NCBI RefSeq assembly: GCF_000092105.1
Contig: NC_014148.1
Coordinates: 4,560,001 to 4,592,000 of the forward strand
Direction: 5' to 3'
From: Planctopirus limnophila DSM 3776
GTDB taxonomy: Bacteria > Planctomycetota > Planctomycetia > Planctomycetales > Planctomycetaceae
Length of the DNA: 32,000 bases
Under the pieces are notes generated by a model. It was not told the DNA's origin. It ran no database searches and saw only the letters and a program-made list of their open reading frames with translations. Positions 229 to 32,000 of this stretch are shown here, piece by piece. Position 1 is the first letter of the stretch. Every line of letters starts with the position of its first letter. The translations under genes and the position numbers were made by a program.

Positions 229-2982
<2,754 letters not shown>

Positions 2983-11951: not shown

Positions 11952-12163
11952 TCGGATTCTCAGTCGCACACGCGGAAATCTTAGTGTTTCCACGACCGAC
12001 GTTGACTTTTCCGCACATGTCGGAAAAACCTGATCTTGCAGCTTTGGGGCATTCTCTGCTACAGCGAAGTACTTTCAGGCAAGAATGGCCTGAGTAATGG
12101 CAATTCGCCCCGTCTTGGCTATGAATTTTCTATCCGATCCGACTCAGCCGTCAAGGATGACCT

Positions 12164-16105: not shown

Positions 16106-16167
16106 CCAGGCTTTTGCTGGAGCGCTGATTGTTTGGCAGTGGCAAAAGGTCAAGAGTATCCCGTCGA

Positions 16168-16329
16168 CGGGTGGCAGGGGTCGGATGTCTTCATCCGCCC
16201 CCTGGTCAATCCGGGTCACCAGCAGAATTGCATCTGAAAAGATGCTTCATGACGGTTGAGAAAGTTTGCCAGGGACGATCAGAGTCCAATGACCTGGGGG
16301 CAAACGAGGACGTTTGACCCCAGCCACCC
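16168..16329. repeat. Module B element copy 1: MITE-like, ~162 bp, ~34-bp imperfect terminal inverted repeats
   Basis: Left end gggtggcaggggtcggatgtcttcatccgcccc. Right end gggggcaaacgaggacgtttgaccccagccaccc, whose reverse complement is gggtggctggggtcaaacgtcctcgtttgccccc. Essentially identical to copy 2, differing by one C in a C-run. Confidence 0.85.
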
Positions 16330-16407
16330 ATCCCGCGATGAAGCCGGTTGTGGATGGCACGTCCAATACGTGTGGACTCGCCCTCATCCCAGCCTTCACA
16401 TGTCGAA

Positions 16408-16568
16408 GGGTGGCAGGGGTCGGATGTCTTCATCCGCCCCCTGGTCAATCCGGGTCACCAGCAGAATTGCATCTGAAAAGATGCTTCATGACGGTTGAGA
16501 AAGTTTGCCAGGGACGATCAGAGTCCAATGACCTGGGGGCAAACGAGGACGTTTGACCCCAGCCACCC
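16408..16568. repeat. Module B element copy 2 (direct repeat of 16168-16329)
   Basis: A 161-bp copy in the same orientation, separated from copy 1 by a 78-bp unique spacer. The two copies explain the duplicated peptide strings in ORFs 15978..16259, 16256..16498 and 16314..16556. Confidence 0.85.
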
Positions 16569-16606
16569 GACGCTTGTGAATCGGGTGAGTGGAGTGAGTG
16601 GCTGAT

Positions 16607-17473: not shown

Positions 17474-17752
17474 GACGAACAATCCTGGGGGCAGTCGGGA
17501 TGGTGAACTTGTCCTCTTGTTGTATCCGCAATAACGCTGGAGGGAAACTCCGGCGGATAGTCATACGTGATGAAATCCTCTTCAAAAAGTTTCCCGGACA
17601 GCTTTTCGCCACTGACAGATGCAGCTCTCGAAAGGTTCGCCCGATCACTCAAGGGAATCGCCAGAAAGGAGACATTGCCGCCAGATTTTGCGCAACAACC
17701 GCTGATAGGGTGAGAGGCCCGTTCACTCACACTTCTAACGGCGGAAAGCTCC

Positions 17753-19114: not shown

Positions 19115-19150
19115 TACCCATTGCAGTATTCAACTGCGTTCATTGGTATG

Positions 19151-19234
19151 GGGTGGCTGGGGTTGAGCGTCTTCGCGAACCCCCAGTTCATGCCGAAAAT
19201 CGCTGGGGGTTCGAAGACTCAACCCCAGCCACCC
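19151..19234. repeat. Module A element: 84-bp near-perfect hairpin 37 nt after the portal stop
   Basis: The arm gggtggctggggttgagcgtcttcgcgaaccccca pairs with tgggggttcgaagactcaaccccagccaccc. The arms differ only by two cg dinucleotide bulges. The outer gggtggctgggg is shared with module B termini. Confidence 0.85.
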
Positions 19235-19300
19235 ACCGCGTAGTTGTTTATTGACATCCGTATGATCCGTCTCCTGATGCCCGCCAGACGAGCTGGAAAC

Positions 19301-19382
19301 TCTCCCACTCCCCTTCTTTTCCTTTCCTCCTTCTTTCCCTTCTCCCCTTCTCTCCTTTTCACCTTCCACCACCTCACTTCCT
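19301..19382 (+). other. Polypyrimidine (C/T) tract upstream of the protease-scaffold gene
   Basis: tctcccactccccttcttttcctttcctccttctttcccttctccccttctctccttttcaccttccaccacctcacttcctg. It is almost purine-free on the gene strand and ends 15 nt before the ATG at 19398. Confidence 0.85.
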
Positions 19383-19397
19383 GTCAAAAGTCTCCAC

Positions 19398-20303
19398 ATG
19401 CCCACACCACTTGTTGAACATCTGCACGACTGGCATTCGGCCAGCCTCCGTGTCGATCGCGATGCCCGCATGGTTTATGACGTCGCTTTGACGGCCGCTG
19501 AATCGGCCAATGGCTATCGCTATCTCCCCGAAGCTCTGGAAAGTGCAGTCCCGCTCTACGAGCGAAAGCCTGTCTTTCTTGATCATGCTCCCGCCGCCCA
19601 TCGTCCCCGCGATCGCAGTATGCGCGATCTGGTGGGAACCATTCGTGCGGCACGCTACGTCGAAGGCCGCATTCGCGGCGACATTGAAGTGGTCGATACC
19701 GAAGCAGGCCGCATTTTTTTAGGACTCGTGGAAACTCAAAGCCCGGCCCTGGGGATGAGCCATGTCGTGCTTGCCCAGCAGGATCCGGCTGCCAAAACCA
19801 TTACAGCGATTGTCGATGTCATCAGTGTCGATGCTGTCGCTTTTCCCGCCACAGCCGCCACCTTTGCCGAGCAATCGGAAAGTGCGATTCCGCCTGAATC
19901 AACCACTTCCAGCGCCACATGTCACGCAAACCCGTCTTGTGCGAATTCGTGTGCCGCCTGCCAGCCGCAAATCAGTGAACTGACGCAATTGCAGCACGAG
20001 AATGCCGAGTTGCGACAGCAGATCCAGGGACTGCAGGAATCGCAACGCGACCTGCTGCAAACTCAACAAGTCCAGACGCTGCTCGAAGCGGCCCAACTGC
20101 CACCCGACCTGCTCACTCCCGAGTTCCGCCAACTGCTGGAGAAAACACCTCTGGGCCTAAGGCCCGCTCTCATCCAGGAACGCATCACTCTCGCCCGACA
20201 ATGGAGACCCACCCCGCACAGCCTTTCACGAACCTCTCACAGCTCTGCCAACCCGACGGACGCCTCGATTATCGAAACCATCCGCAAACGCTTCTCCCGC
20301 TAG
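19398..20303 (+). CDS. Putative prohead protease fused to a coiled-coil scaffold domain
   Basis: It sits between portal and capsid. The N-terminal roughly 150 aa fit an HK97-protease-like layout (KPVFLDHA...VGTI...GRIRGDIEVVDTEAGRIFLGLVETQSPALGMSHVV). The C-terminal heptad-like region ISELTQLQHENAELRQQIQGLQESQRDLLQTQQVQTLLEAAQ is typical of scaffolds. The call rests on pattern only. Confidence 0.5.
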   Translation: MPTPLVEHLHDWHSASLRVDRDARMVYDVALTAAESANGYRYLPEALESAVPLYERKPVFLDHAPAAHRPRDRSMRDLVGTIRAARYVEGRIRGDIEVVDTEAGRIFLGLVETQSPALGMSHVVLAQQDPAAKTITAIVDVISVDAVAFPATAATFAEQSESAIPPESTTSSATCHANPSCANSCAACQPQISELTQLQHENAELRQQIQGLQESQRDLLQTQQVQTLLEAAQLPPDLLTPEFRQLLEKTPLGLRPALIQERITLARQWRPTPHSLSRTSHSSANPTDASIIETIRKRFSR

Positions 20304-20364
20304 TCACGCCCTCTCAGTCAATGCTCATCTCCTGATTCCTTTCTCTCACTCTTGAAGGCTTCTC

Positions 20365-20862
20365 ATGCTTCCAGCACTTCGTTTCCGTTCTGGTCAGGTT
20401 CAGCTCCAGCGCTGGCCCGTTGCCAGTGAAACTGTCATCGAGCCAGGCGATCTCGTCTATTTCGATGGCACCTCGATCAAGCCCGCTTCGTCATTCCCCT
20501 GGACAACCAATCTCGTCACCACTCAGACAAACTTTGCCGCTGCCTTCGTGGGTGTGGCTCATCAGGCTTCGGCAGCGGGGCAAAATGCTCCCGTCTCAGT
20601 CGATATCAGCCCGCTCGCCACTTACGAATATGCGGTCTCATCCGGCAACTACACCGTGGGCCAGACGATCGCAGTTCATGGGGCTCCCAGTGCCTTGTCG
20701 AAGCAGCAGTTAGCCCCTTCTGTCAGTACGGCTGCCATGGCCCGGGCGGCTGAATCGGTGAGCAGCGCGACGACACTGCGTGTCAATTTTGCCAGTGCGT
20801 ACAGCGTCGCCAGCAGCAACATTCACGCTCAGCTCGGTCCAATTCCTGCATCCGAAGCGTAA
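20365..20862 (+). CDS. Putative head decoration / capsid cement protein (DUF2190-like pattern)
   Basis: 165 aa, immediately upstream of the capsid gene. The pattern GDLVYFDG...AAFVGVAHQASAAGQNAPVSVDISPLATYEYAV recalls DUF2190-type decoration proteins. The call rests on position and pattern only. Confidence 0.4.
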   Translation: MLPALRFRSGQVQLQRWPVASETVIEPGDLVYFDGTSIKPASSFPWTTNLVTTQTNFAAAFVGVAHQASAAGQNAPVSVDISPLATYEYAVSSGNYTVGQTIAVHGAPSALSKQQLAPSVSTAAMARAAESVSSATTLRVNFASAYSVASSNIHAQLGPIPASEA

Positions 20863-20957
20863 ACCACTCTCGCAGTTGCCTCTCATCCACCTGATTCATC
20901 CCTCTGGCTTCTCCCCTTTTCACCTTCCCCTCTTTTCGCCTACCAAGAACCCCACAC
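20863..20957 (+). other. Spacer S2 with polypyrimidine tract upstream of the capsid gene
   Basis: Bases 20881-20945 read tctcatccacctgattcatccctctggcttctccccttttcaccttcccctcttttcgcctacc, which is strongly C/T-rich on the gene strand. Confidence 0.7.
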
Positions 20958-22151
20958 ATGCCACACCTGCAACCACTCATCGCTTCACTGGGCCCCGAAG
21001 GCTTCTATCACAAGGTCTGCACGCTGCTCAATGAGAAGCAGCTCTCTGTCGATGACTTCAGTTATTACGAACTTGCCGAGGCCTGTGGTGTCCTCCCGGA
21101 GCTGCGCTCGACGCGACCACTCGCTACCGATCTACCCATTCCTGCACTCTTGCGAGAATCCAACCCGGGCGTGAACTCGTCGCTCTTTCAAGTCGTTACG
21201 GCCGAACTCATTGGCCGCAAAGTTCTCGAAGGCTACGAAGATGATTCCGGTTTCATTGGCGATCGTCTTGTCACGGTTCTTCCCAGCCGGGGAAGATCGC
21301 AGAAGCTCGCGGGCTTTCGCGCCTTGAGCGGCCCGACGGAAGTCTCGGAAGGTCATCCCTATGAAGAATCGACCTTCAGTGAAAAATTCATCACGACCGA
21401 AGAAGCCAAGCGCGGCCGCATTCTTTCGATCAATGAAGAGCTGATTGCTTTTGACCAGACGGGCGAAATCAACCGCCGGGCACTGGCCCTGGGCTTCTAT
21501 CTGCGTCAGGAGCGAGAGCGGACGATTGTGCGGGCAGTGACCGATGCCGACGCGGGCCAGCAGCGATTTGTCTATCGACCTTCGGGGCAGGGCCAGGTGC
21601 TCTACAAGGCTGATGGTTCGCATCAGAACGTCATCGGGCCAGACAACATCACCTCGATCGACTTTGCCGAAAGTCTCCCGCTCACCAACTGGGACGACAT
21701 CGACAAAGTGCTCAATTACCGCGCGACACAGATCAAAGACGATCGCATCGATGGTGCTCCGCGACCCATTCTCGTTCCTGCCCGGCAGATACTTGTCCCC
21801 GAAAAACTACGCGGCACCGCGCGCAGCCTCGTGCATGCCAGCGAGATCATCGTCACCACCGAAGACCGCGAAACCCGCCTCGCCAACCCTATTCGCGATC
21901 AGTTCGAAGTCCTCTCGTCCCCGTTCATTGATGAGCAGGGAGGCAGTGCCCTCTCTGCGTGGTATCTGGGCGATTTCAAGCGCCAGTTCGTCTGGACAGA
22001 AATCTGGCCCGTGCAAACCTTCCTCCAGCGGGAAACGAGCGAAGGGGCTTTCGATCGCGATGTCGTCCTGCGGGTGAAAGCCCGTTACTTCGGCGGAGTT
22101 TCAGCCGTCGATACCGTCTTTGTCACCAAGGTCGATGGCAGCGAAGAATAA
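20958..22151 (+). CDS. Putative major capsid protein
   Basis: 397 aa, in the canonical position after portal, protease-scaffold and decoration genes. It is the largest head gene after the portal. The central block SEGHPYEESTFSEKFITTEEAKRGRILSINEELIAFDQTGE resembles capsid-family blocks. No search was run. Confidence 0.55.
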   Translation: MPHLQPLIASLGPEGFYHKVCTLLNEKQLSVDDFSYYELAEACGVLPELRSTRPLATDLPIPALLRESNPGVNSSLFQVVTAELIGRKVLEGYEDDSGFIGDRLVTVLPSRGRSQKLAGFRALSGPTEVSEGHPYEESTFSEKFITTEEAKRGRILSINEELIAFDQTGEINRRALALGFYLRQERERTIVRAVTDADAGQQRFVYRPSGQGQVLYKADGSHQNVIGPDNITSIDFAESLPLTNWDDIDKVLNYRATQIKDDRIDGAPRPILVPARQILVPEKLRGTARSLVHASEIIVTTEDRETRLANPIRDQFEVLSSPFIDEQGGSALSAWYLGDFKRQFVWTEIWPVQTFLQRETSEGAFDRDVVLRVKARYFGGVSAVDTVFVTKVDGSEE

Positions 22152-22219
22152 TCGTTCACTGAACCTTTCAATCCCTCTGTTGTAGACTCTTCAACCATCC
22201 TCGTGCAGGTTTCTGGGCC

Positions 22220-22720
22220 ATGCCGTTCTGCCTTCCTCGACCCCACAGTGATCCCGTCCTACTCGATCTGAGGCCCTTGCCACTCGGCTTCCAGCAATTG
22301 CTCAAGCGGCATGGCATCATCGCCCCGACTCCACCGATGCGTCTGGCTCGCGACAGTCATGGCAAACCGGTCAAAGATGCCCAGGGTCAGCCCGTCCGCC
22401 TGATCGATGAAACCAACGACACCTATCAGAATGAGTGTGAACTCTATCACCAGCGAATCGCAGTCCTGGCGGTCGCTTTTGCCTTAAGGCACGACCCCAC
22501 ATCACCTCTAGCAGGTTGCTGGCCAGTGCTGCAGCAACCGCCCGTCGGAGAATGGACGGCCTGGGCGGATCAACTCTTCGAGACGCTGGTCTCTGCTGGT
22601 TGGCTGGCGGGCGATCTCCTGGCGTCCTGCACAGAGATCACACGTCTGAGCAATCTGATCAGCGATCGACTGGTGGCAGCTCAAGCCTCTTTCTCGGACA
22701 GTGGGAGTTCGACCGGCTGA
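22220..22720 (+). CDS. Hypothetical phage-module protein; may continue to 22875 in the -1 frame
   Basis: 166-aa ORF with coding-like composition. The downstream 51 codons (22721-22875) read well in another frame but have no ATG, GTG or TTG start (see findings). Confidence 0.6.
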   Translation: MPFCLPRPHSDPVLLDLRPLPLGFQQLLKRHGIIAPTPPMRLARDSHGKPVKDAQGQPVRLIDETNDTYQNECELYHQRIAVLAVAFALRHDPTSPLAGCWPVLQQPPVGEWTAWADQLFETLVSAGWLAGDLLASCTEITRLSNLISDRLVAAQASFSDSGSSTG

Positions 22721-22875
22721 ACCCTGCATCGACCACCCGCTCGATCAACTACTACATCCTCCGCTGTTGTGAACGACTCCATCTTGTAGAAGCCAGCTTC
22801 TACGAACTGAGTTTCGAAGAACAAATCCGCCTCCTCGGCTACGAACTCCTCCGCCAGGCCGAAGATGCAATTTAA

Positions 22876-23358
22876 GAATCAACATCCCCCTTCTCCCGTA
22901 GGGTGCCATGCCGCGTCAGCGAAATGCACCAACTCTTCCCCATTTTTCCTTCTGTCCTACCCGCCTTTCCCCCTTCGCAGCCTTCGCGTCTTCGCGCGAG
23001 CTCTCCGAATTTCAAACTCATCCTCACGCGAAGCCGCGAAGTTCTCCAAGAAGATCTGCATGATTCACCACTTCCGCAAATCTCCCGATCTCTAATTCAT
23101 CCGGGTGGCAGGGGTCGGATGTCTTTATCCGCCCCCATTGTCAAAAGCGTTCACCAGCACAAATGCATCGGCAACCTTCCTCACAACTCCCCAGCCACGC
23201 TTCTTAATCACCACGCTCACCTCGAACTTCTTCCCTTCCCCCCCTTTCTGCCATCCCTTTTTTCCTTCTTCCCTTCTTCCCTTCTTCCCTTCTTCCCTTC
23301 TCCCACTTCGCATCTTCGCGCGAAACCATCCATCCCATCACCTTCCCATGGCCTCAGC
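22876..23358. repeat. Spacer S3, a composite of repeat modules
   Basis: Contents in order: module E (22896-22930, ccgtagggtgccatgccgcgtcagcgaaatgcacc), a C/T tract, the module C hairpin (22971-23057), a partial module B element (23103-23198), a C/T tract with an octamer microsatellite, and the palindrome ttcgcgcgaa (23315-23324). Confidence 0.85.
23264..23303 (+). repeat. Octamer microsatellite (ccttcttc) x4 plus one imperfect unit
   Basis: Direct count gives ccttcttc at 23264, 23272, 23280 and 23288, then ccttctcc at 23296. Confidence 0.9.
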
Positions 23359-23631
23359 ATGACCGATCTCCCCGATCTCTCACAAACCACAGGCGAGCCA
23401 CTCACCGAGTCCCAAATCTGCGGCATCCTCGCCCAGATCGATCTCGATATCCTCAATCTCCTCCGTGATGGAAAACTCGCCGCTCTCAAATACTCAGCCC
23501 CAGGAGCCGGCCCGCAGACCGATCGTGCCGCCAACCTTCAGGCTCTCCTCAATGCCCGCGAAAGCTATCAGAAACTCCTCCACAGTCTGCCGCTCTGGCA
23601 AACCTCCGCCGCCGATCTCAGCCACACCTGA
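23359..23631 (+). CDS. Small hypothetical head/neck-associated protein (90 aa)
   Basis: MTDLPDLSQTTGEPLTESQICGILAQIDLDILNLLRDGKLAALKYSAPGAGPQTDRAANLQALLNARESYQKLL. Its size and helical pattern loosely resemble gpW-type head-completion proteins. The upstream 152 codons of ORF 22903..23631 are repeat-derived and were rejected. Confidence 0.5.
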   Translation: MTDLPDLSQTTGEPLTESQICGILAQIDLDILNLLRDGKLAALKYSAPGAGPQTDRAANLQALLNARESYQKLLHSLPLWQTSAADLSHT

Positions 23632-23675
23632 ACGCCAACTCCCCGGCACATCCCTTCTTTTCAGGATCTCACTTC

Positions 23676-23921
23676 ATGCCACCCCCACCGGCTCACGAAC
23701 GACTCGATCGCCTGCTCGACACCTTGCAGTCATTGGCCATTCAGCTCGAACAGCTCAGGGTCTCACTCGAAGTGCTGGTCGAGCTTTCCAAAGACCACGA
23801 AACACGCCTGCGCCTCGTAGAAACTCATCAGCACAGGCTGACACCACTCGTGGGTGGCCTCGTCTTTCTGATCACTTCCATGGCGACTGTCGCCATCACG
23901 CAGTGGTTCACCCGCATCTGA
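23676..23921 (+). CDS. Small coiled-coil protein with a C-terminal transmembrane helix (XhlA-like architecture)
   Basis: The N-terminal heptad region is RLDRLLDTLQSLAIQLEQLRVSLEVLVELSKDHETRLRLVE. The hydrophobic helix is LTPLVGGLVFLITSMATVAITQWF. Confidence 0.55.
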   Translation: MPPPPAHERLDRLLDTLQSLAIQLEQLRVSLEVLVELSKDHETRLRLVETHQHRLTPLVGGLVFLITSMATVAITQWFTRI

Positions 23922-23954
23922 GCATTCTTCGACGCTTTCGATTCAAAGGTCATC

Positions 23955-24347
23955 ATGCCCGCACTTGCCTTCACAGATCTGGTGTCCGCCGATCTGCTCC
24001 TCATGTTTCACGACTGGGGCCAACCCGCCCAATTGCTGGCTGTGCTCGAAACGTCGCCTCACGAGCCACCCAGCCGCACCTGGCTGACGACGAACGACGC
24101 GCCACTCATTGTCCTGCCCGATCACACACTGGCCAATCAGCCCGCGTCCTCTCCTCAAGGCACATTATCAGCAGTCACGCCAGAAACCCGCTTCTTCGTC
24201 CGAGCCAGCACATGGCCTGTCCTGCCCACCGGCGCACTGCTGGAATTATCGACTCCCCATGGAAGCTGGGCCGTCACCCAGATCCATCCACTCCCGGATT
24301 CCGAACTCCTGGTGATTTCAGCCCGTGATCTGGCCCCTGCCGATTGA
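23955..24347 (+). CDS. Putative head-tail adaptor / head-closure protein
   Basis: 130 aa, immediately upstream of the HK97 gp10-like gene. The C-terminal pattern TRFFVRASTWPVLPTGALLELSTPHGSWAVTQIHPL fits head-tail joining proteins. The call rests on position and pattern only. Confidence 0.4.
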   Translation: MPALAFTDLVSADLLLMFHDWGQPAQLLAVLETSPHEPPSRTWLTTNDAPLIVLPDHTLANQPASSPQGTLSAVTPETRFFVRASTWPVLPTGALLELSTPHGSWAVTQIHPLPDSELLVISARDLAPAD

Positions 24348-24388
24348 AGATCTCTTCTCTCTCTTTTCCCCATCGATCTCATCCAACC

Positions 24389-24778
24389 ATGAACCAACCC
24401 CTGGCACTCCGTATTGTGCTCCAACCTCCACCCGCTCCGGGAATCTTTCCCGACTTTCAGCGCGATCAGCTCACTCCTTTCCGCCAGCGACTCGTTCGTC
24501 AGACAGCCAGAAAACTGCTGCAGCGCATTGCCCAGTTGACTCCTGTCGATACAGGCCGGGCTCAATCGAGCTGGCTGCTCGCTGCCCAACAACTCCAGCC
24601 CGAAACAGCCGCCAATACCGCAACTCCCGATCTGCAGATCACGGAAGGAAAAATTGGTTCGCTTTCCATCATCACCATTGTCAATCAGGTGCCCTACATG
24701 CCCTTTCTCGAATTGGGAACCAGCCAGATGTCTCCCTTCGCCATGATCCGGCGGGCACTACTCGAACAGATCCGCTGA
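24389..24778 (+). CDS. HK97 gp10-family neck/tail-completion protein
   Basis: The signature LTPVDTGRAQSSW (PVDTGxLRxS-type motif of the HK97 gp10 family) is followed by VPYMPFLELGTS. I chose the ATG at 24389; the ORF track opens at 24344, overlapping the previous gene. Confidence 0.65.
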   Translation: MNQPLALRIVLQPPPAPGIFPDFQRDQLTPFRQRLVRQTARKLLQRIAQLTPVDTGRAQSSWLLAAQQLQPETAANTATPDLQITEGKIGSLSIITIVNQVPYMPFLELGTSQMSPFAMIRRALLEQIR

Positions 24779-24804
24779 TCTTTTACTGGAGGCGAACTCC
24801 CCTC

Positions 24805-25257
24805 ATGCCCTCACCTGCCCAACTCCAGCACAGTCTCATCGACTATTGGCAATCGGTCTGCCCGGATGAACTCCCCACGCTTTGGCCAGGCCGCAAAGCC
24901 GATCCTCAATCGTGGCAGCAATGGTGCGAACTCCGCGTCGATAGCTGGACACAGCCCATCCAGAGGCTCGGTCGCTCTCACATCGCCTGCGTCATCACTC
25001 TCCGGCTCTTTGTCAGGCAGATCGCCTCTTCCCCGGAGGCAACTCTCCCTTCTCTGCACAGCCGACTGGAACAACTTCAGACAGTCGTCACTCAGGCCTG
25101 GCACGAACAGACGATTCCCATCGTGGATGATCTTCCTGAGAATTCCGCCAGCATCATCGGCTATCTGCGCGTGGCCGACCTCACGTCTCGATCGATCGAA
25201 ACATCATCTCCCACACTCCTGGGGCGCGAGTTCCTCATCACGGCCCGCACCTCCTGA
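24805..25257 (+). CDS. Putative tail terminator / tail-completion protein
   Basis: 150 aa, between the gp10-like gene and the tube gene. It is the coding-like C-terminal half of ORF 24325..25257; the N-terminal 160 codons overlap the two preceding genes in another frame. Confidence 0.45.
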   Translation: MPSPAQLQHSLIDYWQSVCPDELPTLWPGRKADPQSWQQWCELRVDSWTQPIQRLGRSHIACVITLRLFVRQIASSPEATLPSLHSRLEQLQTVVTQAWHEQTIPIVDDLPENSASIIGYLRVADLTSRSIETSSPTLLGREFLITARTS

Positions 25258-25331
25258 AGTCGACGTCCTGAGGATCGTTCGCGATCCTCGTCAATTCCCA
25301 CCCCCAATATCTCTTCCTATTGAGGCACTCT

Positions 25332-25850
25332 ATGCCCACCTCGGCTCTCGTTCGAAATCTTCGCGATGGGGAACTTCTCATTCGCGATGGCACGACTCCC
25401 ACACCCAAATCGCTCATTGTCCTGCTCGATGAAGGGGATCTTTCCTGGACAGAACGCTCACGCACCATCGAGATCAAAGATCGTGGCTCAATTGCACAAG
25501 GCCATCTCCGCAAAGGGGACGACGAATCGGTCTCGCTCTCGTTTACTGCCAAGTGGACACAGCTGCTCAGTCAATCGATTGAACCAACCGATCCCCTGGC
25601 ACTCTACGAGTTCCTCACCTTTCAGCCACCAGCCAACATCACCAGCACGTCACCCGCCGGCCAGCAACAGACACTCGAACTCGTCTTCACCATTCACGAT
25701 CCCGCGGGCGGCTCCAGCGAAGTCGTCACGTTTCTGAATGTCTATCGCGAAACTCTCACACTCTCCGAAGGGGCTGAAGCCAACACCATCGCCTTCGCCG
25801 GCCGCGCCTTCCAGACAGCACCACAAATCACCCGCTCCACCCCGGAATGA
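25332..25850 (+). CDS. Putative major tail (tube) protein
   Basis: 172 aa, the last gene before the tape measure. It is beta-rich with DGTTPTPKSLIVLLDEGDLSWTERSRTIEIKDRGSIAQGHLRKGDDESVSLSF, a pattern common in siphovirus tube proteins. Confidence 0.5.
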   Translation: MPTSALVRNLRDGELLIRDGTTPTPKSLIVLLDEGDLSWTERSRTIEIKDRGSIAQGHLRKGDDESVSLSFTAKWTQLLSQSIEPTDPLALYEFLTFQPPANITSTSPAGQQQTLELVFTIHDPAGGSSEVVTFLNVYRETLTLSEGAEANTIAFAGRAFQTAPQITRSTPE

Positions 25851-26041
25851 ACACTTCGTTTTCCTCTTCCCGTAGGGCGCCATGCAGCGCCAGCGAAATG
25901 CACCAACACTTCCCCCTTTTTCCTTCCCGCCTTCCTGCCTTCCCGCCCTCTTCCCTTCACTCCCTTCGCAGTCTTCGCGCGAAGCAATCCCCACTCCCAA
26001 CTATCCACCAACAACCCACAACTCCCTCATCGAGTCACCCC
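25851..26041. repeat. Spacer S4, a composite of repeat modules
   Basis: Contents in order: module E (25869-25904), a C/T tract (25909-25968), the 12-bp palindrome cttcgcgcgaag (25973-25984), and module F (atccccactcccaactatccaccaacaacccacaactccc, about 25987-26030). Module F recurs at about 28050-28092. Confidence 0.85.
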
Positions 26042-26773
26042 ATGTACTCCGAATCCTTAACCCTCCGCATTCTCGCCGATAGCTCCGAGCTGGAATCGCG
26101 GCTGGGTGATCTCGGGCGGCAACTCAGCTCTTTGCAATCCTCGACAGATCGGCTCTCTTCATCTGCTTCCCGCCTAACTGGCGCGTTTCAAATGACCAGT
26201 GCCATGAACTCTGTCGAACGTCTCAGCCGGAGCCTGCAAGCCCTCCAGCGCCAGGTTCAGCAGATCTCAGGCACACCCCTCAACCTCAATGTCAGCCCGG
26301 CTCTGGCGGCCATTGCTTCCGTCAGCCGAGCACTCAGTCAACTGGCCCGACAAGTCTCGACATTCCCTTCGATGACTGGCTCAGGTTATCTCCCCCTGGG
26401 CACAGGTTCTTTCCTGCCGACTGGCACCGGTTCCTCGTATGGTGGTGGCTCGACGACGAACACACGCCGCTTTGCCACGGGTGGCCTCGTCACGGGCCCA
26501 CCCGGCATCGACCGCATCCCGGCTCTCCTCACGGCTGGTGAATACGTCCTGAGTTCCGAAGTCGTGCAGCGACTCGGGCTCGGAAATCTGTCTCAACTTT
26601 CAGCCGCTGCTTCCGGCTCTTCAAGAGCCATCGCTCCACCAGCCACCGTGCAGAATTCCCATCATCAATCGATTGGCGAACTGCACGTTCACATGGCACA
26701 GACCCTGGATCTCGCATCGTTCACCGAGAATCTGGCCGCCGATGCCCAAAGACTCCGCCATCGCCGCGGCTAA
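26042..26773 (+). CDS. Short tail tape measure protein
   Basis: 243 aa. The N-terminal part is helical and low in complexity (LESRLGDLGRQLSSLQSSTDRLSSSASRL...LQALQRQVQQI). The C-terminal block RRFATGGLVTGPPGIDRIPALLTAGEYVLSSEVV matches the conserved tape-measure C-terminal motif type (G..G.D.vPa.l..GE.V). It directly follows the tube gene. Confidence 0.65.
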   Translation: MYSESLTLRILADSSELESRLGDLGRQLSSLQSSTDRLSSSASRLTGAFQMTSAMNSVERLSRSLQALQRQVQQISGTPLNLNVSPALAAIASVSRALSQLARQVSTFPSMTGSGYLPLGTGSFLPTGTGSSYGGGSTTNTRRFATGGLVTGPPGIDRIPALLTAGEYVLSSEVVQRLGLGNLSQLSAAASGSSRAIAPPATVQNSHHQSIGELHVHMAQTLDLASFTENLAADAQRLRHRRG

Positions 26774-27316
26774 GATCCTTTTCCCATTTCTACCTGTCGC
26801 CAAATTTTGCCTCTTGATTCCCTTCGCAGCCTTCGCGTCTTCGCGCGAAACGATCGAACGAAAACTCATCCTCACGCGAAGCCGCGAAGTTCTCCAAGAA
26901 GATCAGTATGAGTGTCTCATGTCCCATCTGGAACCCTCGCCCACGTCCTCGTGGGAGAGGGCAGGGTGAGGGTCTTTTCACTCTCTTATTGTGTTGTGTG
27001 CCATGCTTGCAGCTCTGGGCAAGCATGTCTTCGCGCCGGGTGGCAGGGGTCGGATGTCTTCATCCGCCCCCTGGTCCTTCGATTTCACCAGCACGAATGC
27101 ATTCAGTACGTTCCTCACTACTCACACCAAAAGACCTGGGGGCAAACGAAGACGTTTGACCCCAGCCACGCTTCTTAATCCCCACTTTCACCACCGACTC
27201 TGTCCCTTTCTTCCTTCCTGCTTTCCCGCCTTCTGCCCTTCCTGCCTCTGCGGCTTCGCGAGAGACCTCTGAATTCATCTCTTCTCTTCCCCCCATCCTC
27301 ATCGGCTCACGACATC
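26774..27316. repeat. Spacer S5, a composite of repeat modules
   Basis: Contents in order: the module C hairpin (26819-26904, including the palindrome ttcgcgcgaa at 26840-26849), module D (26911-26978), a module B element with both termini (27038-27169), C/T tracts (27181-27250 and 27277-27300), and a half C arm cggcttcgcgagagacc. Confidence 0.85.
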
Positions 27317-27757
27317 ATGCCCCTCCAATTCCACCCGGCGATCGCCCGATCGACCGCCTGGTTCTCGCTCCCGCGGCCCATCGTTTCTCTTCGTGTGCAG
27401 GACGTTTGGGATTCCGAGCGATTCAAGTCTCCACTGATTGATGGCCAGCGCACGGTCGGTCATTCGCAAGGTGGCTCGACGATTGTCATTCAAGGACAGG
27501 TCGCTGCCCAGGCGGGCGAAGTTCGCTTCACGGAAGCCGAGATGCTGGCCACACTGCTTTCTTTGCGTGAGGCCCTGCATGTGGGCGAGTCACAGCCCAA
27601 GTTCGACTTTGTGCTCTTTTTCGATCCCGTCACCCACGAGCGGCAATACTTCCAGGAGTGCTCGACGACCCGTTTGGAATGGGATCTCTCCGAAGCCAGC
27701 CTCTACACCTATTCCCTCACGATCCAGGCCGACGATCCCCAGATTCACACTGCCTGA
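27317..27757 (+). CDS. Putative distal tail protein (Dit-like)
   Basis: 146 aa, the first gene after the tape measure. It contains SPLIDGQRTVGHSQGGSTIVIQGQV. The call rests mainly on position. Confidence 0.4.
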   Translation: MPLQFHPAIARSTAWFSLPRPIVSLRVQDVWDSERFKSPLIDGQRTVGHSQGGSTIVIQGQVAAQAGEVRFTEAEMLATLLSLREALHVGESQPKFDFVLFFDPVTHERQYFQECSTTRLEWDLSEASLYTYSLTIQADDPQIHTA

Positions 27758-28106
27758 GAAACCTCTGCACGAAAAATCATCCTCACGCGAAGCCGCAAAG
27801 TTCTCCAAAAAGATCAGCCGACTCTTCTGTAGGGCATGCTCCCGCATGCCACAGAATTCGTGTCTCATGTCCCCCTCTGGAACCCTCGCCCGGTCTGCCG
27901 GGAGAGGGCAGGGTGAGGGTCTTTTCCCCATTTCTTAAACGTCTTGATCTAACGCGCTATGCAGAGCCAGTAACCTGCACCAACCTTCAAACTTCAAACA
28001 TCAAACATCAAACTTCCCCCTTCTTCCCTTCGCTGCCTTCGCGCGAAACCATCCACTCCCAACCCTCCACCAACAACCCACAACTCCCCCAACCCCGGCT
28101 CACTTC
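27758..28106. repeat. Spacer S6, a composite of repeat modules
   Basis: Contents in order: the module C right arm (27776-27816), an E-like hairpin ggcatgc/gcatgcc (about 27832-27849), module D (27860-27925), a heptamer repeat wtcaaac x4 (27986-28013), a C/T tract, the palindrome ttcgcgcgaa (28038-28047), and module F (about 28050-28092). Confidence 0.85.
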
Positions 28107-29918
28107 ATGCGCAACATCTTTCTCCATGCCGGCAGCCCCTCAGCAGCACCTCTCCTCATCGACCATCGCCTCGTCTCTGGCTGCTGGTTCGAATGGCTTC
28201 GGCAAGGGGGCTGCGGCCCAGGCGAACTCGAATGCAATCTCCCGCTCGACAGCCCACTCTTCGCACCTGGCGATTTCGTCTCGATCGAAGATCATCTCGG
28301 CACCCGCTGGTACCTCGGACGCATTGAAGAACATCTCACCCGCTGGCCCAACCGCGCCATTATTCGCCTGGAAGGCCTCGCAGTTGAACTGGGCGAAGTC
28401 TTCCCCGGTGGCTTCGCGAACAACGAAAGCGATGCTCCTGATCCCTATCGACTGGGCCTCACCGAAGGTGGATTCTCCTTCGATCCCGATTACGGCAACG
28501 AATCCTTCGCCTTCGCCTCACGGCCCGAAGACGTCGTCCGCAAACTGCTCGAACTCGAAGAGATTGCCAGCACCCAGATCGCTTTCCCGTCCGAAGAAAT
28601 CACCAACACCACTACTCCCGTCCCTTTGGAAAGCTTCAAGTTCCATGGGGAAGAATCGCTCCGTTCGATTTTCAAAGATCTCGCTCTGAGGGCTGGCAAT
28701 GCTCCCTGGGGTGTCGATGAAATGGGCCGCTTCTTTTTCCGTGCCGGGCAGGAATTCGCGACACAGACCATTCCTCGAACTTCGATCATCCAGCTTGAAC
28801 ACTCCCGCAGTCTCGATCAGATCTTCAATCGCGTCCTGCTGACCGGGGCCTACCTTTATCTTCCCAATGGCCAGCCTTATCGCTGGCGCGGCAACTATAC
28901 AGAACCCACCAGCCGGGCTTTGTATGGCGAACGCCGCATTCGCTTGTGGGTGCCCTGGATTCGTACGGCTCAGGATGCCCGTGGCTTCCTCAAGGAATTC
29001 TTTTCGCAATATGCCTTTCCCACAGGCCGCCTGCAGGTGGAGTCGGTCGCTTCGACCCAATGGTTGCCCCCCTGGAAAACGCGCTATCAGATGGAAGGCT
29101 TTTCGGGATCCACCGGAGCCACCTGGCAGGCCGACAAGCTCCGCATCGAGTTCAATGAAACACCCGTCTACAGGCTCGAACTCGGGCCCGTTAATCCGCG
29201 AACTCTCTGGCCAGAACCCGATCACGATGAACGCTGGCCCCTCGCACCCACCAGCGAACTCCCCTCTGGCTTTGGTGGCGAAGACATCCCCCTCCCCTGG
29301 CCTCCCGGCGGCGGTGGTGGTGGCGGCGGTTCTTCCTCCAGCAACGATTCTCTCACCTCCGACGAACTCTCCTCCTCGCTCGAGCTCTCTTCGAGTGAGG
29401 CCTCATCCACTCTCGACAGTTCCTCGGATTCCAGTTCGTGGCTCACCAGCGATTCAACTGGCGATTTAACCTTCACCAGCAGCGATGCCAGTCACTCCTC
29501 ATCGGCCACATCCAGCAGCACAGAAAACTCCTCCAGCTGGCACTCCTCTTCGCTCTGGTCTTCTTCTGAGTCTCTCGAAAATTCATCATCGAACAGCGAT
29601 TCGCTCTCCAGCGATCCCCTTTCAAGTCAATCCTCCAACCAAGAAACCACCTCCAGCGAAGAAACACCCTCTAGCACAGAATCAGCAGCCACCCCCACAT
29701 CATTCGCACTTCCGACGGACGAACCAACCTCCACCCTCTCACCTCCCACCGATTCACCCACATCCTTCGAACCCCCTCACTCATTCGATTCGACAGAGAC
29801 CGCTCCCCTCACGATCAGCAGTGAAGAGTCCGAATCTCCCTTCACTGAATCCTCCGCATCCACCGCCAGCGAATCGTTAGAACCCCCCGCGAGCGCTCCT
29901 TCTGAAGATCTCCCTTAA
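28107..29918 (+). CDS. Putative tail hub/fibre protein with a C-terminal acidic Ser/Thr-rich low-complexity tail
   Basis: 603 aa. The N-terminal roughly 390 aa is globular-looking and sits in the position of a tail hub/Tal protein. A GGGGGGG hinge follows, then about 200 aa dominated by S, T, E, D and P (SSSSNDSLTSDELSSSLELSSSEASSTLDSSSDSSSW...). Confidence 0.55.
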   Translation: MRNIFLHAGSPSAAPLLIDHRLVSGCWFEWLRQGGCGPGELECNLPLDSPLFAPGDFVSIEDHLGTRWYLGRIEEHLTRWPNRAIIRLEGLAVELGEVFPGGFANNESDAPDPYRLGLTEGGFSFDPDYGNESFAFASRPEDVVRKLLELEEIASTQIAFPSEEITNTTTPVPLESFKFHGEESLRSIFKDLALRAGNAPWGVDEMGRFFFRAGQEFATQTIPRTSIIQLEHSRSLDQIFNRVLLTGAYLYLPNGQPYRWRGNYTEPTSRALYGERRIRLWVPWIRTAQDARGFLKEFFSQYAFPTGRLQVESVASTQWLPPWKTRYQMEGFSGSTGATWQADKLRIEFNETPVYRLELGPVNPRTLWPEPDHDERWPLAPTSELPSGFGGEDIPLPWPPGGGGGGGGSSSSNDSLTSDELSSSLELSSSEASSTLDSSSDSSSWLTSDSTGDLTFTSSDASHSSSATSSSTENSSSWHSSSLWSSSESLENSSSNSDSLSSDPLSSQSSNQETTSSEETPSSTESAATPTSFALPTDEPTSTLSPPTDSPTSFEPPHSFDSTETAPLTISSEESESPFTESSASTASESLEPPASAPSEDLP

Positions 29919-29974
29919 GCCAATCAGCAACCTCTCTCGGAATCTTCTTTTCCCACCTCGAAAGCGCCACGGAC

Positions 29975-30925
29975 ATGTTCTATCGTTCGACCACCGATCA
30001 GCAATGGTCGCCGCTCGATCTCGAAAACCTCTACGCCGGACCGCAAGGTTCCGCCTGCTGGCTCTTAGGTGGCGGCCCTTCACTCACCACTCTTCCACTC
30101 GAAAAAATTCGCTCGTCGCTCGCTCCTATCATGGCCATCAACCTCGCAGGTCATGGCCACATCATCCCCGACTTCTGGACAGCCTACGACCCCACCACAC
30201 GCTTCCTCCCGGCCAACTATCGCACTCCCCGCACTCTCAAATTCATTCACAAAAGACGGGCCATGGATCTCCTTCCCGGCGACACCTTCAAACTCTGCGA
30301 ATGCCCAGGTGTGGTCTTCTTCGAACACGAAAAACGCAACCACTCCCGCTCCTTCTCGTCAGCCGCCACACGCATTCTCGACTGGAATGATTCCTTCATT
30401 CAGGCCCTCGATCTGCTCCTGCATCTCGGCTTTCGCACCATCTACCTCGCAGGCTGCGAACTCTACATCGCTCCCTCGACGGAACTCCAGCAACAGGCTC
30501 AGCAACACGGCCTCATTTATCAGCCCGGCCAATCGCTAAGGCTCTTTCTCGAAGCCTGCCGCAGCCAGGACATCGCCCCGGAACTCACGGAAACCGCCAT
30601 CACCGGCCCTCAATATCACTTTGATGAAGCCAAGCCCCTGGCAGCGACCCTTCGTACCGACGACCACTACCTGCGCACCGTTCAACTCCTCAGACTCTCA
30701 CGCCAGGCACTGACCCAAACGGGCCTGAAGCTCATCTCCGTCACACCTCACAGTCGCCTCAACGATTTCTTCCCCTATCAGACCATCGCACACGCCCTCG
30801 AAGATCTCGCCCACATCCAAGGCCCACCCGCACATCAGCAAACCCGCGGCCTCTACACCGGCCAACCCATCCTGGCCCCACAACTCACCTGCCCCATGCG
30901 CGACCTCAAAGCCCCCATCGCGTAA
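29975..30925 (+). CDS. DUF115 / MptE-like (Maf-type) putative glycosyltransferase
   Basis: CWLLGGGPSLTTL...APIMAINLAGHGHIIPDFWTAYDP and FIQALDLLLHLGFRTIYLAGCEL match the GxGPSL ... PD..v..D ... G.D layout. That layout is shared by DUF115 motility-accessory-factor and sialyltransferase-like enzymes. Confidence 0.55.
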   Translation: MFYRSTTDQQWSPLDLENLYAGPQGSACWLLGGGPSLTTLPLEKIRSSLAPIMAINLAGHGHIIPDFWTAYDPTTRFLPANYRTPRTLKFIHKRRAMDLLPGDTFKLCECPGVVFFEHEKRNHSRSFSSAATRILDWNDSFIQALDLLLHLGFRTIYLAGCELYIAPSTELQQQAQQHGLIYQPGQSLRLFLEACRSQDIAPELTETAITGPQYHFDEAKPLAATLRTDDHYLRTVQLLRLSRQALTQTGLKLISVTPHSRLNDFFPYQTIAHALEDLAHIQGPPAHQQTRGLYTGQPILAPQLTCPMRDLKAPIA

Positions 30926-31267
30926 GGAGTCACCAGCATGCGTTTCACCTTCTGACGCGTGACGAGACATGGGGTATTCGGTATTTGGAATTTGGGTGGC
31001 ACGTCCCTGAAGGCTTTGCGAAAGGGCGTGGTCTTTAGGTTTTTCTACATCAACTCTGATGTCCAGCCGCTTGGCCCGTCCAACTGCCCCTCTGGAACCC
31101 TCGCCCGGTCTTCCGGGAGAGGGCAGGGTGAGGGTCTTCTGCCTTTGTTGTAGGGTGCCATGCAGCACCAGCGGAATGCACCACCTTCCTGCCTTCCCAC
31201 CTCATTCCCTTCTTGCCTTTCCGACCTTCCTCTCTTCCAACCTTCTTCCCTTCTCCGGCCCCCGTTC
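30926..31267. repeat. Spacer S7, a composite of repeat modules
   Basis: Contents in order: module D (31087-31140), module E (31149-31182, tgtagggtgccatgcagcaccagcggaatgcacc), and a C/T tract (31183-31260) ending 8 nt before the ATG at 31268. Confidence 0.85.
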
Positions 31268-31975
31268 ATGCACAACCCCCTCGCCCGCCAGGTGACAGTC
31301 GTCATCCCGGTCTATGGCAGCCTCGATCATCTCCAGAAATGCCTCACTTCACTCCTCGCCTGGCATCATGTTCCCATCGTCGTCATCGATGACGGAAACC
31401 CACCCGGCACACTCCAGCACTTCGCCTCAATGCCCGGCTTGAAAATCATCCGGCAACCCCATTGCGGCGTCACCCAGGCCTGGAACAACGGCATCGCCGT
31501 CGTCCGCACACCCCTCGTCATCCTGCTCAACAGCGATGTCATCACCAGCGGCCCCTGGATCGACCAGATCCTCGCACCACTGCAGAAGTCAGAATCACCA
31601 CACTTTGTGCCCGCTCAACTCACTGGTGCTGCCTGGCAATCGCCCACTGCCTCAGCCAGTGTCGGCATGCCGGCCCAAAGCCTGCTCGCCGGCTGGTGCC
31701 TCGCCTTCCGCAAGTCACTCTGGCACTACTTAAGACACTTCGACGAACGCTTCCGTCACTGGTATTCCGATACCGATTTCCAAAAGCGTCTGCTGGCCAG
31801 CTCCTCCGCAGATCACACTTCCACAAGTCCTATCCGCTGCATCGACACACTCCCATTGAGTCACGCACTCCACGCCTCGACCCGACATCTCCCCGCTCGC
31901 TCACAACTCTACGCTCTCGATCGAACCGCTTACTTCCAGAAGTGGCAGCCTGAAGGCCATCGACCATGCACCTGA
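31268..31975 (+). CDS. GT2-family glycosyltransferase
   Basis: VTVVIPVYGSLDHLQKCLTSL, VVIDDGNP, GVTQAWNNG and ILLNSDV (DxD-like) give a GT-A fold signature. I chose the ATG at 31268; the 36 codons upstream in ORF 31160..31975 are repeat-derived. Confidence 0.7.
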   Translation: MHNPLARQVTVVIPVYGSLDHLQKCLTSLLAWHHVPIVVIDDGNPPGTLQHFASMPGLKIIRQPHCGVTQAWNNGIAVVRTPLVILLNSDVITSGPWIDQILAPLQKSESPHFVPAQLTGAAWQSPTASASVGMPAQSLLAGWCLAFRKSLWHYLRHFDERFRHWYSDTDFQKRLLASSSADHTSTSPIRCIDTLPLSHALHASTRHLPARSQLYALDRTAYFQKWQPEGHRPCT

Positions 31976-32000
31976 TTCAAGTCATCAACGTCGGCCAGAT
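31966..32000 (+). CDS. Start of a further ORF, truncated by the window end
   Basis: atgcacctga overlaps the GT2 stop codon and reads MHLIQVINVGQ. Only 11 codons are visible, so no function can be assigned. Confidence 0.3.
   Translation, partial: MHLIQVINVGQ

Follow-up and report, generated by a model that had tools for sequence, protein, structure and literature searches.

How are genes expressed when a purine-free repeat lies where a normal ribosome-binding site would be expected? Eight genes in the Planctopirus window (the whole 32,000-nt stretch that we analysed) are preceded in this way, which points to them as candidates for an unusual route of expression. They belong to a phage-like, terminase-less cluster encoding portal, capsid, neck, tail and glycosyltransferase proteins that is conserved across the Planctomycetaceae and may be an undescribed planctomycete GTA-like element. 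Literature searches on polypyrimidine tracts, transcription start sites and GTAs in Planctomycetes and Planctopirus found nothing relevant. The portal gene and the genes that follow it are laid out as below.

17753-19114, + strand: portal gene (PF05136), with the SD-like motif GGAAAG and normal composition; upstream edge of the anomalous domain
19398-31975, + strand: co-directional cluster genes downstream of the portal gene; sense strand far richer in C than in G (C3 0.43, G3 0.21)

Gene skews after the portal gene range from -0.07 to -0.38, compared with -0.14 to +0.19 for the host (p=2e-9), and the tracts sit within a domain of sense-strand C>G skew that has the size of a transcription unit. 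In L136, the skew stops at the last glycosyltransferase gene; relatives have no such skew. The genes preceded by tracts are under purifying selection: the capsid gene has 45 synonymous versus 1 non-synonymous codon differences, and no gene is frame-disrupted. Therefore, these genes need a working initiation signal. Scanning for sigma-70 promoters and intrinsic terminators gave counts not above those of shuffled sequence, with no promoter-like site in the spacers, which fits read-through transcription without proving it.

A maximal-segment scan of the window (pyrimidine +1, purine -3; score of at least 20) identified nine C/T tracts, all on the + strand between 19300 and 31256, 89-100% pyrimidine and about 20-83 nt each; it found none on the - strand and none at positions 1-19299. 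When the region's own C-rich composition is modelled as a first-order Markov chain, the mean expectation is 1.3 tracts, with a maximum of 5 and a best score of 36; the best observed score is 71. All nine are intergenic, the spacers making up 20% of the cluster, and most adjoin a start codon: six of the seven long spacers have the tract as their last or penultimate module, with its end 11-74 nt from the ATG. A sequence-only reading of this DNA had described C/T runs upstream of the structural genes and in their orientation. The runs are real, and the positions given for them are correct to about 20 nt; two further tracts (22933-22976 and 24351-24371) had gone unlisted, and the 8-nt period of the tracts and the C>G domain around them had gone unnoticed. 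Its remark that the host repeats at 4.4-4.65 kb and 16.1-16.6 kb lack such tracts is likewise borne out by the scan. The nine tracts are as follows.

19300-19382, + strand: tract 1, 83 nt, 94% pyrimidine; ends 15 nt before ATG 19398 (301-aa head protein)
20899-20937, + strand: tract 2, 39 nt; ends 20 nt before ATG 20958 (major capsid protein, PF25209)
22933-22976, + strand: tract 3, linking repeat module A to module B; the next start is 382 nt downstream
23227-23309, + strand: tract 4, 83 nt, 96% pyrimidine, containing (TCCCTTCT)x6 at 23254-23301; ends 49 nt before ATG 23359
24351-24371, + strand: tract 5, 21 nt of pure pyrimidine, 17 nt before ATG 24389 (neck / tail-completion protein, phrog_169)
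25909-25967, + strand: tract 6, an A-CT-B linker with (CCTTCCCG)x3, followed by module F; 74 nt before ATG 26042 (short tape-measure-like protein)
27198-27249, + strand: tract 7, (CCTTCCTG)x5, with a second short run at 27277-27300; before ATG 27317
28013-28040, + strand: tract 8, 28 nt, continuing into module B, with module F next; before ATG 28107 (603-aa protein)
31184-31256, + strand: tract 9, 73 nt, directly after module A; ends 11 nt before ATG 31268 (family-2 glycosyltransferase)

Overall, the tracts consist of C 0.51, T 0.41, G 0.04 and A 0.04, and they lie between genes whose starts have orthologue support. Open reading frames cross some of them (22903-23631 and 25847-26773); neither is conserved, and spacer indels between strains break the frame, which argues against the tracts as coding sequence.

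The tracts are degenerate tandem octamer arrays with the consensus CTTCYYCC. The 8-nt period is strong: neighbouring CTTC motifs are 8 nt apart in 54 of 142 pairs, compared with 2.2 in shuffled sequence, and the autocorrelation peaks at lags 8, 16 and 24. TRF reports head-to-tail periods of 8 (or 16, 17, 24) in tracts 1, 2, 4, 6, 7 and 9, with 8/17 for tract 1. The tracts have both the head-to-tail units and the length polymorphism between strains that mark slippage-prone tandem repeats. By inspection, tract 1 contains a pure-pyrimidine run of 53 nt and tract 4 one of 50 nt (at least 40 nt confirmed for both), and the six units at 23254-23301 form a perfect mirror repeat, while mirror symmetry is imperfect in the other tracts. 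Heptamer arrays (CAAACTT, TTCCAAC) are also present in the window and its relatives.

This regularity could reflect a specific partner, either a regulator that binds RNA or DNA at CUUC/GAAG every 8 nt or a purine-rich sRNA; alternatively, H-DNA formed at mirror repeats could modulate transcription. The CTTC spacing does resemble an array of protein-binding sites, the (TCCCTTCT)x6 block is mirror-symmetric, and confinement to one cluster suggests a dedicated regulator. Nevertheless, we consider this explanation improbable. An 8-bp period does not fit the DNA helical repeat, neither unit sequence nor copy number is conserved between strains, and the tracts have no Rfam match; at E<=1, a search of 16-32 kb returned only chance miRNA-like matches on a MITE hairpin. 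The sampled DNA yielded no candidate regulator or complementary purine-rich RNA, purine-rich arrays being present only as inverted partners at one other Planctopirus locus, L145.

The tracts are embedded in a mosaic of other repeats, of which the following lie in or beside the tract-bearing spacers.

19140-19240, + strand: MITE-like perfect hairpin between the portal stop and tract 1; second copy at 7809-7929
22969-23045, + strand: module B (CCTTCGCG octamers), which with module C forms a 17-18 bp hairpin; further B/C copies at 26818-26893 and 4578-4640
25991-26029, + strand: module F, a G-free, C/A-rich leader segment; second copy at 28053-28091

The B-C hairpin has a predicted fold of -26 kcal/mol (z = -4.0). 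The MITE-like hairpin, predicted at -65 kcal/mol (z = -9), is found in this strain only, being absent in L004, L005 and L006. Modules A-E recur at other sites, and module D is also found across planctomycete metagenomes; C/T arrays were found only in the cluster and, within about 140 kb of other Planctopirus DNA, at L145, and the array itself does not behave as a dispersed REP/MITE-like module. The linker from A to B ranges in length between 9 nt (L004 14605, L006 6181) and 59 nt (25909 in the window). That tracts 3 and 6 form variable linkers within an A-CT-B element favours an origin in repeat dynamics.

Comparison between strains and genera shows what is stable and what is not. Although third positions diverge by about 15%, five Planctopirus assemblies keep tracts in the same spacers. 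Tract 1 is at the same position in four other assemblies, its flanks conserved and its interior diverged; tract 2 is near-identical in sequence in L001-L006; tract 5 is conserved in L004 and L005; and tract 9 has orthologues in L004, L005 and L136. Length and sequence otherwise vary widely, with indels of about 25-70 nt in tracts 1, 4, 6, 7 and 8 among the window, L004 and L005. In the latter two, tract 7 differs in length, tract 8 is about 30 nt longer, and tract 4 is missing, with a (TTCCAAC)n heptamer array in its place. Ts/Tv within the tracts is 1.4-1.8, compared with 1.38 at third codon positions, in alignments that are ridden with indels. Logan assembly contig ends coincide with repeats and were set aside as a source of transcript evidence.

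Beyond the cluster, about 140 kb of other Planctopirus DNA (the sampled DNA representing about 3% of the genome) contains arrays at a single locus, L145, where they form an inverted pair 200-370 nt from genes that have SDs. The orthologous clusters of four other genera (L007, L008, L149 and L151) have short spacers and no tracts, and a further 663 kb of planctomycete contigs bearing module D contains no arrays, apart from those in a Planctopirus MAG's own cluster. The tracts are therefore not a general planctomycete feature; in the DNA sampled they are confined to a single lineage and, nearly without exception, to this cluster. A scan of IMG/VR with CCTTCYYBCCTTCYYBCCTTC returned at least 119 loci; the matches listed are mostly (CCTT)n microsatellites, some are (CTTCTCCC)n arrays that lie in phage contigs of high GC and keep no consistent orientation to genes, and the scan as a whole is uninformative for the Planctopirus cluster.

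These observations bear on a second explanation, that the tracts are non-adaptive simple-sequence arrays. The octamer would have been seeded by the CCTTCGCG units of module B and would expand and contract by slippage in repeat-colonised spacers, and the pyrimidine-on-sense orientation would stem from whatever strand-asymmetric pressure skews the transcription unit as a whole, perhaps the cheapness of U and C in a burst-expressed transcript or the avoidance of purine-rich non-template strands. We regard this as somewhat unlikely, although much is consistent with it: the octamer periodicity, the large indels and unit turnover between strains, the 9 to 59 nt span of the A-CT-B linker, a Ts/Tv that is not clearly elevated, confinement to one genus, and the L145 arrays, an inverted pair distant from start codons. 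The remaining mosaic modules of the cluster, too, all point the same way as the genes. Sense-strand selection for U and C, stronger with higher expression, is documented (PMC4844684), as is GTA-specific compositional selection (PMC7360931). However, neutral growth leaves unexplained the start-proximal placement in long spacers, the exclusion of SD-like motifs and the retention of arrays in the same spacers of five assemblies, and host spacers carry the same mosaic modules without arrays. Nor can economy account for the tracts: the added RNA is itself costly, and thus cheap nucleotides cannot explain why the tracts exist.

Scoring GGAG, GAGG, AGGA, AAGG or GGGA at -18 to -5 as SD-like, a set chosen independently of the organism's own 16S anti-SD, we found such a motif in none of the eight tract-bearing genes and in five of their seven tract-less cluster neighbours (Fisher p=0.007), where the tetramers are weak (AAGG, AGGA, GAGG, GGAG). 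The earlier statement that the tract genes lack a recognisable SD is thus upheld for all eight. The same mutual exclusion of tract and SD is seen again in L005 and L004. In the four other genera, where there are no tracts, nearly every gene of the cluster has GGAG, AGGA or AAGG at -7 to -14, which fits a role of the tracts as SD-independent leaders. The start regions of the tract genes are also predicted to be poorly structured: mean MFE over -60 to +30 is -9.6 kcal/mol, whereas 60 host genes average -20.0 (p=6e-7) and the orthologues in relatives lie near -20, and tract 1 together with its start region has a predicted fold of only -1 kcal/mol over 125 nt. Two features expected of a standby leader are present, namely a predicted unstructured segment 5' of the initiation region and served genes without an SD-like motif.

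SDs are sparse in Planctomycetes, a phylum for which initiation on leaderless mRNAs or with the help of S1 has been suggested (PMC5397173). In a host sample of 86 genes, about 59% have no SD-like motif and none has a leader of more than 70% pyrimidine, which rules out the tracts as a general Planctopirus leader type. SD-less host genes without pyrimidine leaders also indicate that the tracts are not this organism's general SD-free mechanism.

The explanation that we favour, tentatively and at somewhat less than even chances, sees in the tracts transcribed, unstructured leaders on which ribosomes would load without an SD, and derives them from repeat slippage. Slippage would have extended CTTCYYCC octamer arrays between the genes of a GTA-like cluster, conserved and domesticated, in Planctopirus, where the sense strand downstream of the portal gene became depleted of G in codons and spacers alike, and SD motifs still kept in other genera would have been lost from the eight genes. 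As transcribed 5' leaders or intercistronic segments that lack both purines and structure, the arrays may offer the 30S subunit a single-stranded landing (standby) platform, probably via ribosomal protein S1, and initiation at these genes would no longer be SD-dependent. S1 prefers pyrimidine- and U-rich single strands; a length of 60-90 nt is more than a standby site requires. Transcription of the tracts, their binding by S1 or the 30S subunit, and raised translation are the inferred part of this reading. A role as SD-independent leaders had been among those suggested from the letters, beside sRNA targets and triplex DNA, and it survives in part; Rho loading and non-adaptive slippage arrays had not been raised there. 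The SD exclusion, the relatives' SDs without tracts, the low predicted structure and the start-proximal position argue for it; the SD-less host genes without such leaders, the hypervariability between strains and the L145 arrays, which lie far from genes that bear SDs, argue against it, and Ts/Tv shows no clear selection against purines.

The same composition suggests a further alternative, in which the tracts are Rho utilisation (rut) sites: Rho would load ahead of the SD-less genes and terminate transcription, and a potentially lethal cluster would be kept off except where a processive antiterminator, or tight coupling of transcription to translation, was active. Mapped Rut sites are U- and YC-rich, G-poor, richer in C than in G, and poorly structured (PMC9499579), features that the C-rich, G-poor tracts share in a predicted unstructured form. 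The tracts match the description of rut sites as about 60-80 nt of C-rich, G-poor, YC-rich RNA predicted to be unstructured, with about five of the nine in the range of rut-like length (59-83 nt), tract 7 reaching 103 nt if its second run is included, and the short ones measuring 21-44 nt. Moreover, the C>G domain takes in the cluster as a whole, the PVC group possesses Rho (PMC11347177), and the absence of downstream SDs would strengthen polarity. GTA clusters are controlled by internal terminators and antitermination, with CcGTA of Caulobacter as precedent: there, transcription terminates at repeats that follow the first gene, and GafZ bypasses these (PMC11150451). A preprint on BaGTA is also listed. 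The anomaly described here likewise begins just after the first gene, the portal gene. Even so, we consider rut function distinctly unlikely. The model does not require a position close to the start codon, eight terminators would be costly in a cluster under strong purifying selection unless regulated, and no antiterminator candidate was identified.

Combining the leader reading with these elements, one may conceive of the cluster as recoded as a unit in one genus, with G purged after the portal gene and CU octamer arrays replacing SDs. Its dedicated expression would then combine S1/standby initiation with Rho-sensitive, antiterminator-dependent transcription, or else depend on a factor that binds CUUC repeats, in what would be a previously undescribed way to insulate and gate a lethal gene set. 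This broader scheme is speculative and, in our judgement, rather unlikely.

Translation start in SD-poor phyla such as the Planctomycetes is poorly understood, and the locus provides a natural contrast between conserved genes with SD-like motifs in four other genera and purine-free octamer leaders in Planctopirus, amid transcription-unit-wide depletion of G. If the tracts are loading platforms for ribosomes or Rho, SD-independent initiation becomes directly testable in a genetically tractable planctomycete, as does the conditional silencing of phage-derived particles. If they are neutral slippage arrays, the locus still shows one operon under strand-specific compositional pressure of unusual strength.

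Among known systems, the cyanobacterial STRR heptamers and the CTCTT repeats of Neisseria opa genes are likewise short-unit, strand-asymmetric tandem arrays whose copy number varies between strains. The opa pyrimidine repeats are coding, phase-variable and able to form H-DNA; unlike the tracts, neither they nor the STRR heptamers go together with SD loss or with skew across a transcription unit. As in REP, BIME or MITE-like mosaics, the tracts are embedded among dispersed hairpin-forming modules (A, B-C, D and E) that also occur in host spacers, but the C/T array, unlike those elements, is not dispersed and forms no hairpin. Known standby sites are short, unique sequences, whereas the tracts are strain-variable octamer arrays of 40-83 nt, rich in C and U and confined to one cluster. 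What the tracts share with standby and S1-dependent leaders, such as the tisB standby site and unstructured 5' tails, is a purine-poor single strand, here predicted, upstream of an SD-less start. As RNA, they would share with rut sites a probably untranslated stretch of about 60-80 nt that is richer in C than in G, G-poor, YC-rich and predicted to be unstructured (PMC9499579); natural rut sites, unlike the tracts, have no octamer period and are not near-pure polypyrimidine repeats. The repeats of CcGTA, GC-rich units of 150 bp that form hairpins, have been shown to terminate transcription (PMC11150451), while the Planctopirus cluster, a putative GTA-like element, has purine-free arrays and separate hairpin modules. 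Nevertheless, as in GafYZ control of CcGTA (PMC11150451), a phage-like structural cluster carries spacer repeats that start after its first gene, and a lethal product would demand tight control.

We identified nine C/T tracts in the window with a maximal-segment scan (pyrimidine +1, purine -3), which called none in the first 19.3 kb or anywhere on the - strand. Their C/T content is 89-100%, and two of them link members of a set of dispersed spacer repeats (modules A-F):

Tract 1: 19300-19382, + strand
Tract 2: 20899-20937, + strand
Tract 3: 22933-22976, + strand, linker between modules A and B
Tract 4: 23227-23309, + strand
Tract 5: 24351-24371, + strand, a short run
Tract 6: 25909-25967, + strand, linker between modules A and B
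Tract 7: 27198-27249, + strand
Tract 8: 28013-28040, + strand
Tract 9: 31184-31256, + strand

These positions essentially agree with those of the sequence-only reading, as does the common orientation with the genes, all of which in the cluster lie on the + strand; its list recovered the other tracts and lacked 22933-22976 and the short run. The cluster region is C-rich (58% pyrimidine), and a first-order Markov model of it yields a mean of 1.3 segments (maximum 5) against the nine observed; the best score is 36 in the model and 71 in the region itself. All nine tracts are intergenic, in spacers that make up 20% of the cluster. Seven spacers exceed 190 nt; in six of these, no more than one module separates the tract from the start codon, and the tract ends 11-74 nt from the ATG. 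A 308-aa ORF begins at an ATGA stop/start overlap (25847-25850) and passes through tract 6 into the tape-measure-like gene; this extension is unconserved in other strains and probably spurious.

Tandem Repeats Finder reports a period of 8 in the tracts, with units TCCCTTCT (x6), CCTTCCCG (x3), CCTTCCTG (x5), and CTCCCCTT (x7). Among 32 tracts pooled from the window and related loci, 54 of 142 neighbouring CTTC pairs are spaced by exactly 8 nt (shuffles: mean 2.2, maximum 8), and base identity is autocorrelated at lags 8, 16, and 24; the pooled composition is C 0.51, T 0.41, A 0.04, and G 0.04. The tracts are octamer-structured, not random C/T. We consider it improbable that a specific protein, sRNA, or H-DNA partner acts on them.

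The cluster (window 17753-32000) encodes a lambda-type portal (PF05136), a major capsid protein (PF25209), a neck / tail-completion protein (phrog_169), a short tape-measure-like protein, a family-2 glycosyltransferase, and unknowns. Loci from six assemblies share the portal-to-glycosyltransferase cluster in differing chromosomal neighbourhoods, with no terminase within 10 kb at any of them. A single residue separates the capsid from its Planctopirus hydrillae JC280 counterpart, and it has hundreds of same-length homologues in the Planctomycetaceae (68-76% identity). Between Planctopirus strains, capsid codons differ by 45 synonymous versus 1 non-synonymous changes and no cluster gene has a frame-disrupting gap; on such comparisons, the cluster genes are under strong purifying selection. 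In the 603-aa protein, the C-terminal third (29270-29918) is Ser/Thr/Pro/Glu-rich low complexity following a Gly run, and includes an 18-nt tandem repeat (29632-29681). Conserved across the Planctomycetaceae, as in L004, L005, L007, L008, L149, and L151, this terminase-less cluster looks like a domesticated GTA-like element; we found no description of a planctomycete one in the searchable literature. In GTA clusters, expression is known to be controlled by terminators within the cluster together with antitermination (PMC11150451), Rho is present in PVC bacteria (PMC11347177), and the composition and length of the tracts are textbook-like for Rho loading (PMC9499579). The tracts could be candidate rut sites, a role we regard as unlikely.

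The spacers that carry tracts match across five Planctopirus assemblies (the window, L004, L005, L006, and L136), and the tracts are on the gene strand in every case. Comparison of orthologous spacers, proposed in the sequence-only reading, gave a contrast: the clusters of four other planctomycete genera (L007, L008, L149, and L151) have no tract on either strand, their spacers are mostly <115 nt, and nearly every gene has GGAG, AGGA, or AAGG between -14 and -7. The tract pattern is real and lineage-specific. The earlier claim that tract genes lack a Shine-Dalgarno (SD) sequence also held, with SD-like tetramers at 0/8 tract-bearing versus 5/7 tract-less cluster genes (Fisher p=0.007) and the same exclusion in L005 and L004. 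Leaders of post-portal Planctopirus genes are G-poor (3-23% of the last 60 nt), and predicted folding energy from -60 to +30 averages -9.6 kcal/mol in the cluster versus -20.0 for 60 host genes (p=6e-7) and about -20 kcal/mol for the relatives' orthologues. Several findings favour a standby-leader reading: the tracts lie near starts, they and SD-like motifs are mutually exclusive, the relatives differ, predicted structure is low, the genes are constrained, and Planctomycetes make little use of SDs (PMC5397173). In this reading cluster genes would have lost their SDs during a G purge, and the arrays would be transcribed as purine-free, structure-free leaders offering a 30S/S1 standby platform at SD-less genes. 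We put this putative function forward tentatively, as a serious candidate short of probable.

The long cluster spacers are built as mosaics from dispersed repeats, all co-directional with the genes:

Module A: GTAGGGTGCCATGC...GCACCAAC
Module B: CCTTCGCG octamers, predicted hairpin with module C (-26 kcal/mol)
Module D: another hairpin, GGGAGAGGGCAGGGTGAGGGTCTT
Module E: a further dispersed repeat
Module F: 25991-26029 and 28053-28091, G-free and C/A-rich, CCACTCCCAAC...CCACCAACAACCCACAACTCCC, directly 5' of two cluster genes
Mosaic repeat sites in the window: 4484-4653, 16148-16571, 22889-23237, 26818-27208, 27758-27928, and 31087-31183
MITE-like element (~140 nt): 19115-19250 (hairpin 19140-19240), second copy 7809-7929, predicted near-perfect hairpin (-65 kcal/mol)

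Module A, the B-C hairpin, the D hairpin, and E are common to host and cluster spacers, and D occurs at >=120 loci in soil, rhizosphere, and marine metagenome contigs. L004, L005, and L006 lack the MITE-like copy that follows the portal gene, and this strain specificity implies recent mobility. A G-poor, CA-rich leader similar to module F precedes flgI (flagellar P-ring) elsewhere in P. hydrillae (L139, ~3253-3312). The A-to-B linker measures 44-59 nt in the window but 9 nt in L004 and L006, which suggests that the octamer arrays arose by expansion of a B-type octamer whose Gs were lost. G-free heptamers also occur: (CAAACTT)x5 beside an octamer tract (window 27981-28016), and (TTCCAAC)n replacing or adjoining octamer tracts in L004 (~12030-12075) and L005 (~12220-12270).

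A three-strain alignment gave divergences of 15% at third codon positions, 21-24% in spacers, and 22-24% in tracts, with large indels in tracts 1, 4, 6, 7, and 8, and (TTCCAAC)n in place of tract 4 in L004 and L005. Tract Ts/Tv (1.4-1.8) is not clearly higher than that of third positions (1.38). The flanks of tract 1 are conserved and its interior is turned over yet still pyrimidine.

Every post-portal gene (window 19398-31975) has C>>G on its sense strand, with C3 0.43 and G3 0.21 versus 0.325 and 0.29 in the window's host genes; both are about 0.33 in the relatives' clusters. Gene skew is -0.07 to -0.38 in the cluster versus -0.14 to +0.19 in the host (p=2e-9). The domain begins at the first tract and, in L136 (1684-6782), extends as far as the last glycosyltransferase gene; the gene that follows lies on the opposite strand and is normal. 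Because the skew affects every post-portal gene and is bounded by the cluster, the tracts are the non-coding extreme of a transcription-unit-sized G depletion. Its cause might be selection for low-cost U/C in transcripts expressed at high levels (PMC4844684), and compositional selection has a precedent in GTAs (PMC7360931). Such a pressure could set the strand polarity of what would otherwise be non-adaptive slippage arrays, an explanation that accounts for tract variability and the A-CT-B linker but not for start-proximity or SD-like exclusion, and that we hold to be possible, if rather doubtful.

A scan with module E retrieved 20 loci in P. hydrillae and a Planctopirus MAG. Of the proposed genome-wide search for C/T runs, about 140 kb of non-cluster Planctopirus DNA was covered (~3% of the genome, chosen by repeat presence), and there octamer arrays are rare, occurring at one locus only. 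This locus (L145 3961-4473, P. hydrillae LYDR01000001) has three arrays, one - and two +, in the 1.07 kb that separate two divergent genes. One of these genes encodes a BON-domain protein; the other, whose sense strand is C-skewed too, encodes an unknown 196-aa product. The arrays form an inverted pair, each aimed at the gene on its own side at a distance of 200-370 nt from its start, and SD-like motifs are present at both genes. Among 86 sampled host genes, none has a leader >70% pyrimidine and only 41% have an SD-like motif. Long arrays are absent from 663 kb of module-D planctomycete metagenome contigs except in the Planctopirus MAG's own cluster. In high-GC viral contigs from IMG/VR (L028, L029, L070, L093, and L053), (CTTCTCCC)n or (CTCCCTTC)n octamer arrays 30-67 nt long lie close to gene boundaries; some would read GGAG-rich on the adjacent gene's sense strand, and those of L053 are arranged as an inverted pair.

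The standby-leader reading is weakened by the host genes that lack such leaders, the hypervariability of the tracts, and the misfit of L145. The readings are compatible with one another, and arrays that arose by slippage and were then used as leaders would be the most economical combination. The pattern is experimentally tractable. In the searchable literature we found no account of octamer CU arrays standing in for SDs throughout a cluster; the closest known kinds are S1/standby leaders, rut sites, short tandem intergenic repeats (STRR, opa CTCTT), and terminator-gated GTA clusters.
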